DNA of 46,323 nucleotides from Chthonomonadales bacterium (GTDB lineage: Bacteria > Armatimonadota > Chthonomonadetes > Chthonomonadales > Chthonomonadaceae). Of the stretch, positions 3,718-18,654 are shown one piece after another. A program made the position numbers and the translations under genes. Numbering within the stretch: position 1 is the first letter of the stretch; the number at the start of each line of letters is the position of its first letter. The notes below the pieces were generated by a model. It made no database searches. It worked only from the letters and a program-made list of their open reading frames with translations, and had not been told where the DNA came from. The DNA lies in the NCBI GenBank assembly GCA_038217285.1, contig JBBQPO010000015.1:1-46323 (forward strand), written 5' to 3'.

Positions 3718-4608
3718 ATGTCTCAGTCCACTCACTCGAAAAGCGGTAAGGGCGCCGGATTTACGCTTATCGAGCTACTTGTCGTTATCGCGATCATCGC
3801 GATTCTGGCGGCAATCCTGTTTCCCGTCTTCGCCCAAGCCCGCGAAAAGGCCCGCTCCATCTCCTGCCTGAGCAACGTCAAGCAGATCGGGACAGCCTTT
3901 TACATGTATGTGCAGGACTACGACGAAACCACACCCTGCCTGGGCAATGGCTGGGACTGGGAAGTCAAGCTCTATCCCTACACCAAGAATGTCCAACTCT
4001 ACTTCTGTCCCGACCGCAGTGACTGCTGCGATAACTACGATTACACAGCCCAGATCGGTCTTAACATCAGCCCGAGCGGCAAAGAGATCGGCTACGGCTA
4101 CAACTGGGGCTTCCACCGCCGTGGCGGCGGACTGCTTCTCGGCCAGCAGGCCGATCCTCAGCGACCTGGCAGTAAGTATATTCCCGGCATCACTCTCGCC
4201 GCGATGACCGCTCCGGCGAACCTCTTCGCCTTCGGCGACAGCTACGACACGCCCCGCACCACTATGAACATGAGCTTCCTGCTCTGCACCTGGAACGGCA
4301 CCAGTAACAGCTCCCTGCGCCACAGCGGCGGTCACTTCAATGTCGGCTTCGCCGATGGACACGCCAAGGCGGTCTACTACAAAGCGGGCTATATGAGCGG
4401 CGCAGAGAACGGTCGGTTCGCCCGACCGCGCAGCACCAACGAAGTCTCGTACTACTGCGCCGATCCGGACGCCATGCTCACCAACACCGACGGCGACAGC
4501 CTGGACCTGCCCTCTCCTTTCCGATGCGGCGACATCGGCAAGTGGATGGACACGAACTACCCGCCCTGCACCGGTGGTGCGACCTCCCACTGTATGATGC
4601 CGGACTAG
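3718..4608 (+). CDS. DUF1559 / prepilin-type N-terminal cleavage-methylation protein with H-X9-DG-like motif
   Basis: [34 protein letters not shown]-terminal [27 protein letters not shown]. Confidence 0.93.
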
Positions 4609-4655
4609 TTCGTCCCGCTTCCCGTTGTTCGGGACCACGAACAGCGTTCTTTGAA

Positions 4656-4690
4656 GGCCTCCGATGCGCGGTTGGCGCGCATCGGAGGCC
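4656..4690 (+). terminator. perfect 15-bp stem-loop between DUF1559 gene and small lipoprotein (attenuator or mRNA stabiliser)
   Basis: GGCCTCCGATGCGCG-gttgg-CGCGCATCGGAGGCC followed only by a weak T tract (gtttc). Confidence 0.5.
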
Positions 4691-4713
4691 GTTTCTCATA
4701 GGAGATTGAAACC

Positions 4714-4872
4714 ATGAAAACTTTCCGAACCTCCCTGATGGCCCTTCTCTGCGGCGCTTTTCTGACACTGATTCTCGCCGGCTGTGGCGGTACGCCTGAT
4801 GTCAAACAGGATCCCGGCGCGGGCAGCAAGGGCCTCAGCGCTCAGGAGAAGAAAGACAAACAGGACAAGTAG
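4714..4872 (+). CDS. small lipoprotein (52 aa), not in ORF track
   Basis: RBS AGGAG; MKTFRTSLMALLCGAFLTLILAGCGGTPDVKQDPGAGSKGLSAQEKKDKQDK*; lipobox LAG-C. Confidence 0.8.
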   Translation: MKTFRTSLMALLCGAFLTLILAGCGGTPDVKQDPGAGSKGLSAQEKKDKQDK

Positions 4873-4912
4873 CAGCCACACCATCCGGCGACACGAAGGA
4901 TAGGGATCTCCG

Positions 4913-5149
4913 ATGAAAAATAAGACTGTTTCGCCGCGGTTCGTCCTGACCACAGTAGCCGTGCTGGTAACCTCGCTGGGCGTCGTCGAATGGCGTGCCC
5001 TTTATGCCCTGGACCATCCGCCCCTCCATCGCACCAACTGCGTCACCTGCCACTCCGATGCCAAAACCATGAAGGCCATGGCGGACAAAGCGGGCGACGA
5101 TCTCTATAACCAGCATCGCGGCGATCTCAAAGAAGCCTGGACCAAGTAG
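4913..5149 (+). CDS. small exported or membrane-anchored protein with CxxCH heme-binding motif
   Basis: N-terminal hydrophobic segment, NCVTCH motif, AGGGA RBS-like sequence upstream. Confidence 0.65.
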   Translation: MKNKTVSPRFVLTTVAVLVTSLGVVEWRALYALDHPPLHRTNCVTCHSDAKTMKAMADKAGDDLYNQHRGDLKEAWTK

Positions 5150-15210: not shown

Positions 15211-15282
15211 TAGGCAGTATTGGATTTGAACCAATGACCTCTTCCGTGTCAAGGAAGCGCTCTACCCCTGAGCCAACCGCCT
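15211..15282 (-). tRNA. trnV: tRNA-Val(GAC)
   Basis: AGGCGGT acceptor / ACTGCCT-A; D arm GCTC..GAGC; anticodon arm CTTCC-TTGACAC-GGAAG; T arm ATTGG-TTCAAAT-CCAAT; CCA not encoded. Confidence 0.96.
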
Positions 15283-15424: not shown

Positions 15425-16315
15425 TCAAAGGGCGTGTTCCGTTGCCTTCGGATTTTGCGACCGGAGCTTGCGATAGTTCGTCAGGCATTTCTCCACAGTC
15501 TCCAGAGAGGGGAAACGACTGCCTTCCTGCTCGATCAGCACATACTCTGCGCCACCCTTCTCCTCGGCGGCCTTCAGGAGATTTGCCCAGGGAGTATCCC
15601 CTTCCCCGAACAGCACTTTGTAGCCGCGATCCGTGCCGGCGCCCCAGTCCTTGAGGTGCAGGGAGCGAATACGGCCGGGATGGGCGCGGATCCAGGCAAT
15701 GGGATCGAAGCCGACTTCCATACAGGTGCCGACATCGAACTGCAGGGTGACCTCTTTGGGCGTGTGCGCGGCCAAAAAAGGCATCGGCCGAAATCCGTCC
15801 CGCTCGGTAAACTCCAGATGGTGATTATGATAACCCGCGCGCATCTTCAGGGGCTTGAGCGTCTGTGCGGCCTGGGTCAGGGTATCGGCGACCCGCTTCC
15901 AGTCGTCCTGATTCTCCGTTCGCCCGGCGCTTGCCATCACGATCGTCTTGGAACCGAGGATCCGGTTCAGTTCGATCGCGTGTTTCAGCCCGTCCCCTTC
16001 CAGCCCACTGCGATTGTTGTGGGTCGAGAGGCACCGGATATTCAGCTCGTCCAGCAGTTTGCGCACCTCCTGCGCATAGGAGGCGGACCAGGCCGCATAC
16101 GGGGAATAGAACTCGACCACCTCATAGCCCATCCGCGCGACCGTCCGCACCGTTCCCATCAGATCTTTCGCCAACTCGTCACGCACCGAATAGAGCTCCA
16201 GTCCTACCGGTAGGTGGCGGGGCTTCCCCAGCGCTCCGGCTGCAAGAGCGCCGCTCGACGCCGCCAGCGTCGCCATAAGAAACGCGCGTCTTGTCATCTC
16301 ATCGTTGTTAGCCAT
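15425..16315 (-). CDS. Tat-exported sugar phosphate isomerase/epimerase (AP endonuclease 2 TIM barrel)
   Basis: TRRAFL Tat motif; GLELYSVRD, GYHNH, FDVG, LHLKD, IEQE motifs. Confidence 0.9.
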   Translation of the reverse strand: MANNDEMTRRAFLMATLAASSGALAAGALGKPRHLPVGLELYSVRDELAKDLMGTVRTVARMGYEVVEFYSPYAAWSASYAQEVRKLLDELNIRCLSTHNNRSGLEGDGLKHAIELNRILGSKTIVMASAGRTENQDDWKRVADTLTQAAQTLKPLKMRAGYHNHHLEFTERDGFRPMPFLAAHTPKEVTLQFDVGTCMEVGFDPIAWIRAHPGRIRSLHLKDWGAGTDRGYKVLFGEGDTPWANLLKAAEEKGGAEYVLIEQEGSRFPSLETVEKCLTNYRKLRSQNPKATEHAL

Positions 16316-16452: not shown

Positions 16453-17250
16453 TCAGTCGCAGATGCCGTAGAAGGTGCCGTAGCTGTTGCCGTCGGTGGC
16501 GGCGTTGGGGTCTGGATCGTCGCTGCGGCCGCCGGAAGGGCAGACGACCTGGGTGTCGAACGCGCCACTGGTGACCACGAATTTGGCGTGACCGTCGGCG
16601 TACACGAAGCCCGCGCCCCGGCTGTGCCAGGCCTGGTAGTAGCCGGGAATGTAGCCGTATTTGGCGTTCGTGCCGAACCAGGGCATCATCTCGTCGCGCA
16701 TGATGCGGGTGTCGGAGGGCGCGGTGAACTGCGAATCGGTGACGATGTTGTTCACGGTGAACTGGGTCGTGTCGTTGTTCTGTGACGATTCGCCTGCCAC
16801 CACGGAGAAGCTGCCCCGGTCGAAGCGGTAACTGGAGCCGTAGCAGGACTGGTAGTTGGCGCGGCCCGGACAGCCGTAGGTCGGGTCGGAGATCGACGGG
16901 CCGCCCTGATCGTCGGGGCAGCGAAAGATCTCCTTGTTCTTGGTATAGGGCAGGATCTCCAGCTCGATCCCTTTGTGCGGCGTGTCGCCGGTCCAGGCGC
17001 GGGCGCTGGTCACGGGGTCCTGGGTGTTGTAGGCGTAGAAGATCGGGAAGCTCTCGTCGTAGTCCTGCACATACATCTTGACCGCCAGACCGATCTGGCG
17101 AACGTTGGAGGTGCAGACGGTCTGGCGCGCGCTTTCGCGGGCCTGCGCGAAGACCGGGAAGAGAATGGCCGCCAGGATCGCGATGATCGCGATGACGACG
17201 AGCAGCTCGATGAGGGTGAAGGCGGTGCGGATGCGGGAAGTATTGTTCAT
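16453..17250 (-). CDS. DUF1559 / prepilin-type N-terminal cleavage-methylation protein with H-X9-DG motif, downstream of TPP riboswitch
   Basis: [52 protein letters not shown] at 17250 with GGAG RBS. Confidence 0.93.
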
Positions 17251-17284
17251 TTGGGTTGCTCCGTTCTCACCGAAGGCGGGCAAC

Positions 17285-17317
17285 AAAAAACGCCGCCATC
17301 GGGAAATGGAAGCGGCG
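17285..17317 (-). terminator. intrinsic terminator in riboswitch expression platform
   Basis: Minus strand CGCCGC-ttccatttcccgatg-GCGGCG-TTTTTT between the aptamer and the start codon. Confidence 0.7.
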
Positions 17318-17365
17318 AGAAGAGGGCACAGCGCCACTAGGGCGCAGATGTCTTTCCGGTATTGG

Positions 17366-17458
17366 CCGCTTTCCTACGCCGGTATGATCCGGTTCAGGTA
17401 CCAGGGTCGGCTTTTCAAAAGCCCTCTCAGCCTGTTTTGCAGCAGGCTCCCCTAGCGG
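17366..17458 (-). ncRNA. TPP (thiamine pyrophosphate) riboswitch
   Basis: Minus strand CCGCTAGGGGAGCCTG..CAGGCTGAGAGGGC..GCCGACCCTGGTACCTGAACCGGATCATACCGGCGTAGGAAAGCGG, with CTGAGA, ACCTGA and ATACC.GCGTAGGAA hallmarks and P1 CCGCT/AGCGG. Confidence 0.93.
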
Positions 17459-17490
17459 TGGCGCGACCGTTTTGCGGTCGCGTCGTCTTT

Positions 17491-17519
17491 AGTGTACACG
17501 TATTCCTTCGAAATTGCAA
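17491..17519 (-). promoter_or_regulatory. sigma70-like promoter upstream of TPP riboswitch
   Basis: Minus strand TTGCAA-N17-TACACT. Confidence 0.6.
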
Positions 17520-17523
17520 ACGA

Positions 17524-17814
17524 TCAGAGCGTGGGCGGGGCGTTCCGGCTTTCGAGGACGCGCCGGATCGGGATGTTGGCGACCACGGCCACGGCGTTGT
17601 CCGAGCGCTCCAGGCTGAGGTCGAGAGCCGCTTCGTCGATCTCGACATACTTCGAGAGGACGAGCAGAATCTCGCGGCGCATCTCCTCCATCATTGGGGC
17701 CGGTATATCGGCCCGATCGTGCATGAGGACGAAGCGCAGACGGTCTTTGGCAACGTGTTTGGCGGATTTTTCGCCCCGACCGAAGAGGCGGTCAATCAAG
17801 GTATTCAATGGCAT
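17524..17814 (-). CDS. minE: cell division topological specificity factor MinE
   Basis: SAKHVAKDRLRFVLMHDR...MRREILLVLSKYVEID...VANIPIRRV. Confidence 0.95.
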   Translation of the reverse strand: MPLNTLIDRLFGRGEKSAKHVAKDRLRFVLMHDRADIPAPMMEEMRREILLVLSKYVEIDEAALDLSLERSDNAVAVVANIPIRRVLESRNAPPTL

Positions 17815-17835: not shown

Positions 17836-18654
17836 TCAGCGAGATTTTCCGGAGAAACGTCGGAGCATCTTCTCGAGGAAGCCGCTCTTCTCGTCCAGGT
17901 CCAGGAACGGAACCTCTTCTCCACGCAGGCGGCGGGCGATGTTGCGATAGGCTTTGCCCGCCATACTGGTGTCCGACATGACCGCAGGCTCCCCGTGGTT
18001 CGTCGAGGTGATGATCACCTCATCGTCGGGAACGACGCCGATCAGTTTGACGGAGCTACCCAGCACCTCCTGCACATCCTCTACGCTGAGCATCTCCTGG
18101 TTTTTGACCATACGCATGCGGATCCGGTTGACGATCAGCATCGGGTTGCACAGCTCCTGCGCCTCCAGCAGGCCGATGATGCGGTCGGAATCACGCACGG
18201 AGGCCATCTCCGGGTTGGTGACGACGATCGCTTCGGTGGCGCCTGCGGTGGCGTTCTTGAAGCCTTGCTCGATGCCGGCCGGACAGTCGATCAGGATGAA
18301 GGTGAAGCCCTCTTCCTGGAGATCTGCCACCAACTGCTGCATCTGCCGGGTGGTGACCGCGCTCTTGTCGCGGGTCTGCGCAGCGGGCAGCAGCGAGAGG
18401 TTCTGGTTCCGCTTGTCCTTGATCAGGGCTTGCCGGAGTTTGGCGCGGCCCTCGACCACATCCACGATATCGTAGACGATGCGGTTTTCGAGGCCCAGCG
18501 CGAGATCGAGGTTGCGGAGGCCGATATCGGCGTCCATCACCGCGACCTTCTCTCCCATCGCTGCCAGTGCGACTCCCAGGTTCGCGGTCGTTGTGGTCTT
18601 GCCGACGCCGCCTTTTCCCGAAGTTATGACGATCACCCTGCCGGTAGTGGACAT
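17836..18654 (-). CDS. minD: septum site-determining ATPase MinD
   Basis: ITSGKGGVGKTTTTAN, DADIGLRNLD, IDCPAGIEQGF, C-terminal amphipathic helix. Confidence 0.97.
   Translation of the reverse strand: MSTTGRVIVITSGKGGVGKTTTTANLGVALAAMGEKVAVMDADIGLRNLDLALGLENRIVYDIVDVVEGRAKLRQALIKDKRNQNLSLLPAAQTRDKSAVTTRQMQQLVADLQEEGFTFILIDCPAGIEQGFKNATAGATEAIVVTNPEMASVRDSDRIIGLLEAQELCNPMLIVNRIRMRMVKNQEMLSVEDVQEVLGSSVKLIGVVPDDEVIITSTNHGEPAVMSDTSMAGKAYRNIARRLRGEEVPFLDLDEKSGFLEKMLRRFSGKSR

Follow-up and report, generated by a model that had tools for sequence, protein, structure and literature searches.

A pilin-like DUF1559 gene behind a thiamine pyrophosphate riboswitch in Armatimonadota and its possible role in thiamine acquisition

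The locus described here lies on a 46,323-nucleotide (nt) stretch of DNA from a Chthonomonadales bacterium of the phylum Armatimonadota (assembly GCA_038217285.1, contig JBBQPO010000015.1), which is called the window below. On the minus strand of the window a thiamine pyrophosphate (TPP) riboswitch precedes a gene encoding a pilin-like protein of the DUF1559/H-X9-DG family, within a leader that extends over 273 nt from the stop codon of minE to the ATG of the pilin-like gene (Table 1). The Infernal match to the Rfam TPP family (RF00059) exceeds the gathering score and encloses the complete aptamer that the original prediction, an earlier reading of this DNA, had placed at 17366-17458; a search of the whole genome returned the identical match. 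The next gene on the same strand encodes a TIM-barrel protein, in agreement with the earlier statement that the unit contains no thi biosynthesis or transporter gene.

Table 1. Features of the riboswitch-pilin locus and its flanks, in the order in which the minus strand is read.
Feature	Coordinates	Strand	Basis or remark
minD	17836-18654	-	Pfam; upstream of minE
minE	17524-17814	-	Pfam; upstream of the leader
Possible sigma-70-type promoter	17491-17519	-	TTGCAA (17519-17514), 17-nt spacer, TACACT (17496-17491)
GC-rich hairpin, 14-pair stem	17457-17487	-	Hairpin scan (listed on the plus strand) and leader fold; between promoter-like site and aptamer
TPP riboswitch aptamer, RF00059	17354-17463	-	cmscan 71.0 bits, gathering score 54.3, E 4e-12, model positions 1-105, not cut off
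Antiterminator (predicted)	17303-17376	-	3' strand of P1 (17376-17362) pairs with terminator 5' arm (17318-17303), duplex -15.9 kcal/mol
Intrinsic terminator	17285-17317	-	Stem 17317-17311 with 17300-17291, then U-run 17290-17285
Shine-Dalgarno GGAG	17259-17262	-	8 nt before the ATG at 17250, read from the sequence
Pilin-like DUF1559/H-X9-DG gene, 265 amino acids, thiamine-linked clade	16453-17250	-	ATG at 17250, open to stop 16455-16453
Prepilin-type N-terminal motif, residues 10-31, Glu at +5	17158-17223	-	PF07963, TIGR02532
H-X9-DG motif (H209, D219-G220)	16591-16626	-	Read in the sequence; turn of a beta-hairpin in the model
Xylose-isomerase-like TIM-barrel gene	15425-16315	-	Pfam; 137 nt downstream of the pilin gene
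tRNA-Val (GAC)	15211-15282		Downstream of the pilin gene

The intrinsic terminator proposed between the aptamer and the gene is present with both its stem and its U-run: CGCCGCU (17317-17311) is followed by a loop and by GAUGGCGGCG (17300-17291), with the end of which it pairs, and then by UUUUUUGUU (17290-17282). The isolated hairpin folds at -12.5 kcal/mol; a simple terminator scan did not report it, probably because its loop exceeds the 3-8 bases which that scan allows. The 3' strand of the aptamer helix P1 is complementary to the 5' arm of the terminator, and in the minimum-energy fold of 17380-17278 the pairing of these two strands replaces the terminator stem. The 251-nt leader folds better than all of 200 shuffled versions (200/200, z -3.2). 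As predicted by folding, this expression platform is the arrangement classical for a transcriptional OFF switch: when TPP is plentiful, its binding would close P1, the terminator would form and transcription would stop before the gene, and under TPP shortage the 3' strand of P1 would be free and pair with the 5' arm of the terminator, and the gene would be transcribed. The same hairpin with the UUUUUUGUU run stands in the leaders of three loci (L017, L021 and L034; two same-genus genomes), while the U-runs of the other two same-genus leaders are shorter. The promoter formerly read as TTGCAA-N17-TACACT is there in its letters and is at most plausible as a sigma-70-type promoter; counted by eye, it agrees with the consensus at 8 of 12 positions, under the threshold of 9 of the promoter scan, from the output of which it is absent.

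The protein begins, as had been expected, at the ATG as a prepilin and carries the H-X9-DG motif. Its N-terminus matches PF07963 (N_methyl, 28.2 bits, cut-off 21.2) and TIGR02532 (27.6 bits, cut-off 16.3), the FTLIE of the motif being readable directly, and PF07596 (DUF1559/SBP_bac_10) is matched at 41.4 bits (cut-off 23.3) over profile positions 2-54 of 268 alone. TIGR04294 (H-X9-DG) scores 17.4, slightly below its cut-off of 19; in the alignment of orthologues, H209, D219 and H221 are invariant and G220 occurs in at least 90% of the rows. The protein thus resembles the DUF1559/H-X9-DG family (PF07596, TIGR04294) in its Pfam match and its motif, and differs from it in belonging to a distinct thiamine clade that stands, in the sampled genomes, always behind a TPP riboswitch. 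The GspG equivalog model (TIGR01710) reaches 33.3 bits against the 88.85 needed, with the 54 N-terminal residues alone aligned, the PilA and ComGC equivalog models remain far under their cut-offs, and no periplasmic-binding-protein family of Pfam or NCBIfam matches the protein. A sequence search of the PDB gave matches confined to the N-termini of pilins, and look-up of residues 60-265 in the ESM Atlas yielded just unnamed or DUF1559 clusters. The 37 orthologues are 61-87% identical to the window protein over the full length and share many invariant aromatic and acidic residues. Those invariant specifically in this clade include Y74, H92, E96, D114, Y133, Y137, Y141, R182, D186, E187, Y198, Y200 and W208. 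The closest database relatives are labelled Chthonomonadaceae, Chthonomonadales or Armatimonadota, within a family so broad that 236,326 representative proteins match at E <= 0.001. When contigs of named genomes were scanned with the orthologue alignment, almost all of the matches listed were paralogues that share the ubiquitous N-terminal motif, and one was a Chthonomonadales orthologue (64% identity).

The AlphaFold model built on a 103-row alignment (predicted local distance difference test score, pLDDT, 95.3; predicted template-modelling score, pTM, 0.87) consists of a helix over residues 13-63 followed by strands in a large mixed domain, with strands 213-217 and 222-225 around the H-X9-DG motif. 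It supersedes a first model based on the 37 orthologues (pLDDT 69), with which Foldseek found nothing significant. With the 103-row model Foldseek found nothing at E <= 0.001, just the N-terminal helix of pilins. In the exhaustive VIA-align search the top 19 matches are all type IV pilins or pseudopilins, at modest Z from 5.1 down to 2.6, among them PilA4 (6xxd, Z 5.1), EpsG (4lw9, 4.4), ComP (5hz7, 4.0) and PulG (5wda, 3.7). The periplasmic-binding fold suggested by the Pfam name SBP_bac_10 was unsupported by both searches. On the basis of the model we conclude that the protein is probably an enlarged pilin-type protein without a recognisable periplasmic-binding-protein fold. It shares with the type IV pilins and the pseudopilins of type II secretion (PilA4, EpsG, PulG) the N-terminal methylation motif with Glu5 and probably the overall fold; unlike them, it has a globular domain about twice as large, and its gene is a solitary one downstream of a riboswitch and distant from assembly genes.

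The invariance of D63, D65, H92, E96, D114, D186, E187, H209, D219 and H221 would suit a different role, that of an extracytoplasmic salvage enzyme which hydrolyses or dephosphorylates thiamine derivatives (TPP, thiamine monophosphate or breakdown products) so that a carrier can import them, and low in the VIA-align list there are weak matches (Z 2.2-2.6) to inositol-monophosphatase-like chains. These Z values lie, however, in the range that VIA-align itself calls a common arrangement, and no hydrolase family matches by sequence. D63, D65, H209, D219 and H221 are moreover invariant or nearly so in the paralogues too and therefore look structural. We consider an enzymatic role improbable.

The pairing of riboswitch and pilin-like gene was followed in 41 genomes of the same order, the genome of the window included, and across the phylum in an evenly drawn set of 151 genomes, a match to a profile built from the 37 orthologues being counted as strong at >=258 bits. 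RF00059 matches in 38 of the 41 order genomes at 45 loci, all of which were examined. Behind 38 of these there is a pilin-like gene (in 37/41 genomes) and behind 7 there are thi genes (thiC, thiE-like and thiM-like; assigned by eye and from simple motifs rather than with Pfam). The pairing is missing from four genomes: two are incomplete (67% and 79%), one has no riboswitch match, and in one the sole riboswitch precedes thiC. At the level of the phylum, RF00059 matches in 104 of the 151 genomes, and 54 orthologue matches of at least 258 bits occur in 52 genomes; the next best match (178 bits) does not adjoin the riboswitch of its genome. A check of coordinates placed 54 of the 54 downstream of RF00059 on the same strand, so that the conservation of the riboswitch upstream of orthologues, which the original prediction had named as a test, extends to all of the 52 orthologue genomes. 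The riboswitch and the first aligned residue are at least 34 nt apart (median 94.5); gaps of 747 and 897 nt, the largest two, are those of second tandem copies. A further 73 riboswitch loci without such an orthologue were fetched: in 7, from seven genomes, the gene behind the riboswitch is again pilin-like but shorter and divergent, with matches to PF07596 and N_methyl, 11 were not classified, and most of the others precede thi genes according to a motif reading. The pairing is thus found in 59 of 151 genomes (52 with the orthologue, 7 with the divergent gene).

The thiamine-clade gene is single-copy in most of the sampled genomes. In two genomes (L125 on G064:C3, and G077:C264:3557-5074) two tandem copies stand behind one riboswitch, and in G064 the symporter comes next. 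One orthologue (G107:C1:851442-852203, L133) has an in-frame TAA within the match, in a genome without a kinase match, and may be a decaying copy. Two genomes of one genus have a second TPP riboswitch (L084 on G076:C5 and L086 on G142:C29), behind which lie genes for proteins of about 220 amino acids; these look hydrophobic and membrane-spanning by eye and could represent a further thiamine carrier.

In Armatimonadota and the Planctomycetota-Verrucomicrobiota group, few families of unknown function are as expanded as the DUF1559/H-X9-DG proteins. In the genome of the window 65 open frames match the orthologue profile at E <= 1e-5; the window gene scores 498 bits, the next 175 bits, and 48 frames lie between 100 and 150 bits. 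The roughly 50 paralogues of this genome are without the riboswitch pairing, and no Rfam family matches within 7 kb of the closest of them (C105:1033-1896), the neighbourhood of which is uninformative. A tree of 116 rows was calculated from 58 riboswitch-linked orthologues, the 7 divergent sequences and 51 paralogues of the same genome, after rows below 60 bits, without the N-terminal motif or shorter than 180 amino acids had been dropped and L002, a duplicate of the window, omitted. The 58 orthologues constitute one side of a branch with a Shimodaira-Hasegawa-like approximate likelihood ratio (SH-aLRT) support of 97, and the 7 divergent rows form a separate group (SH-aLRT 100). A constraint grouping all 65 riboswitch-linked rows was not rejected by the approximately unbiased test (p-AU 0.71) and was better by 24.8 log-likelihood units, so that a single origin of the riboswitch-pilin pairing is possible.

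The genomes that carry the pairing differ from the others in their thiamine genes. A full-length thiamine pyrophosphokinase (PF04263) is present in 57/59 genomes with the pairing versus 6/92 without, and an orthologue of a symporter of the sodium:solute symporter family (SSF; E <= 1e-60) in 38/59 versus 5/92. For thiC (PF01964) the relation is reversed, with matches in 4/59 genomes with the pairing, that of the window among them, versus 82/92 without. Of the 52 orthologue genomes, 22 have the kinase gene directly behind the pilin gene, and the SSF symporter lies within the pilin cluster in 20 genomes and otherwise usually adjoins the kinase. In the genome of the window the kinase and the SSF symporter stand together on another contig (G000:C26:18744-20766, L048:4742-6818), behind a glycosyltransferase gene and with no Rfam match in the 13 kb searched. 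The original description of a lone gene is hence true at the locus, with the likely partners of the gene elsewhere in the genome. The riboswitch-pilin pair is the constant core of the locus across genomes.

In the commoner layout (30/52 orthologue genomes) the kinase is not adjacent, and after the pilin gene there is no same-strand transport or thi gene in 12 inspected loci of this kind. Since adhesion and cell contact are classical functions of pilins, this layout would agree with a surface behaviour induced by starvation, in which TPP shortage switches on an adhesion or contact pilin directed toward vitamin-producing neighbours and the protein plays no direct part in transport. Against this speak the single cluster with kinase and symporter in about 20 genomes and the high conservation of the window protein, as surface pilins are usually variable in sequence. 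We consider this explanation improbable.

The recurrence of the pairing across the phylum, mostly in bacteria that appear unable to make thiamine, makes it most likely that the protein helps thiamine uptake. We propose, with a probability of about 0.55, that the pilin-like protein, controlled by the TPP-sensing OFF switch, is an extracytoplasmic component of thiamine acquisition which binds thiamine and feeds it to an inner-membrane carrier. The prepilin-type signal would lead to export and probably to processing by the prepilin peptidase of the genome, and the N-terminal helix would anchor the protein in the inner membrane or in a short pilus or pseudopilus. The large, unusually conserved globular domain would most likely capture thiamine outside the cytoplasmic membrane and hand it over to the carrier, in many relatives presumably the SSF symporter, and thiamine pyrophosphokinase would convert the imported thiamine to TPP. 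With the kinase present, the substrate is more likely to be intact thiamine than a precursor. For the thiamine (or precursor) uptake subunit envisaged earlier, the clustering with kinase and symporter, the co-occurrence of the kinase and the absence of thiC matches provide genomic support, the kinase pointing to the vitamin itself, which the protein may bind. A complex prediction for the symporter and the pilin-like protein scored 0.00, which weighs neither way on binding.

Several observations weigh against this proposal. The residue before the predicted cleavage site is Ala in the window protein instead of the canonical Gly; across the 37 orthologues this position (-1) is Ala or Gly. The fold matches listed by Foldseek and VIA-align include no known thiamine-binding fold and no thiamine-system periplasmic binding protein, an absence that excludes no family. 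The SSF orthologue was not found at E <= 1e-60 in 21 of the 59 genomes with the pairing. The genome of the window carries thiC under a riboswitch of its own, as well as a ThiD/ThiE-like frame recognised by eye only, and uptake is therefore probably not essential in this bacterium. A hairpin with a U-run is found in just 32 of the 64 leaders compared, so the control mechanism varies among loci. Finally, related genomes are not independent, so that the co-occurrence counts overstate the support and are to be read as patterns, not as statistics.

A second vitamin is associated with a DUF1559 protein in the same genome. Two cobalamin riboswitches are present, one of them upstream of a gene for what by eye is a BtuF-like binding protein. 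The other (RF00174, 40.5 bits, C89:4989-5142) precedes a 253-amino-acid DUF1559 protein (G000:C89:4001-4759; the pair, 4001-5142, corresponds to L142:513-1654). Among the 41 order genomes 31 have an orthologue of this protein, which in 29 is directly preceded by a cobalamin riboswitch (coordinates compared by eye); of the two exceptions, one is a gene at a contig start and the other belongs to a genome without a riboswitch match. The two cases are alike in that a vitamin riboswitch is followed by a pilin-like gene and that this order is conserved; they are unlike in the riboswitch and in the clade, the cobalamin-linked protein scoring 141 bits on the thiamine-clade profile. A riboswitch reports a ligand that matters to the cell, and the TPP-riboswitch clade together with its B12-riboswitch sister case therefore offers concrete ligand hypotheses for two vitamins.

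For the assembly of such proteins the genome has one prepilin peptidase (Peptidase_A24), three secretins and 13 matches to T2SSE-type ATPases above the cut-off, and just one TonB-dependent barrel. A 9-kb stretch of one contig (C3:19237-28217) holds three T2SSE-type ATPase genes, the sole prepilin peptidase match and two DUF1559 paralogues and is a candidate assembly locus for the DUF1559 family. The many type IV filament ATPases and the three secretins, set against the single TonB-dependent barrel, and a fold that resembles pilins only, could also mean that the protein is a vitamin-specific structural subunit of a pilus or pseudopilus, a subunit that opens or spans the envelope via a secretin or reaches neighbouring cells, letting thiamine enter, and does not bind thiamine. 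However, the thiamine regulon of this genome is without a separate binder, and the association of distinct DUF1559 clades with distinct vitamins, together with the strongly conserved globular domain, suggests a specific ligand or partner. A purely structural role seems to us unlikely.

The proposed capture of thiamine by the pilin-like protein could be one instance of a wider scheme. DUF1559 proteins might each be specific for a ligand and be subunits of a type IV filament or pseudopilus by which vitamins, and perhaps many other nutrients, are brought across the outer envelope with no TonB-dependent transporter involved, with clades tuned to thiamine and cobalamin and the approximately 50 paralogues per genome forming a repertoire of capture modules. 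We offer this as a tentative extension, possible though clearly less secure than the thiamine case itself. If the filament subunits are ligand-specific, they would represent an unrecognised route of nutrient import and would give a function to one of the largest uncharacterised bacterial families. If the proposal for thiamine is correct, a pilin-based step would be added to vitamin uptake, which would help to explain the thiamine supply in organisms without a thiC match and, at least in the genome of the window, with one TonB-dependent barrel, and vitamin auxotrophy and cross-feeding could be better predicted from metagenomes.

The locus may be compared with units of two known types. In their regulatory logic, TPP-riboswitch uptake and salvage units (thiV, kinase operons) are alike, and the operons of the relatives of the window locus contain an SSF symporter and thiamine pyrophosphokinase. 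ThiV is an SSF symporter of SAR11, and PMC11452348 describes ThiV as a riboswitch-controlled sodium:solute symporter for hydroxymethylpyrimidine (HMP) or thiamine; the Armatimonadota symporter is compared with it at the level of the SSF family. Unlike in any of the described units, the first gene here, the sole one of the unit in the window, is pilin-like. DNA-uptake pilins (ComP of Neisseria, ComGC) provide the working analogy of a pilin that binds an import substrate, and ComP is among the structural matches; in contrast to DNA, the substrate here would be a small vitamin, which by this analogy the window protein may bind.

No publication linking a riboswitch to DUF1559 or pilin-like proteins was found in a search outside of which subscription journals and supplementary files lay, and the papers found on DUF1559 give no function in their titles or abstract openings. 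The genome paper of Fimbriimonas ginsengisoli (PMC4072686) reports, in the sections concerned, that thiamine synthesis is lacking and that of this pathway just the kinase is kept; it counts 79 PulG-like genes and draws no connection between these findings there.

At most 7% of the sampled words occur in any one RNA run. The contigs that stack on the N-terminal helix (17024-17257) come from four RNA libraries of soil or rhizosphere and are uninformative on the window gene, because this helix is common to all paralogues. One 151-nt contig spans the aptamer with 4 differences, from a run that is only guessed to be RNA, and one 250-nt contig spans 16486-16729 with 26 differences. These contigs are not taken as evidence of expression.

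The GC-rich hairpin in front of the aptamer has no U-run after its stem on the minus strand; the scan flagged it as a terminator-like structure of the plus strand, although there is no credible gene end at this place. The plus-strand open frames of the region have no Pfam match. The TIM-barrel gene downstream was rejected as a member of the unit, as no other locus compared has it behind the pilin gene; in the window itself its co-transcription with the pilin gene is possible. Its product has, as judged by eye, an apparent twin-arginine signal.

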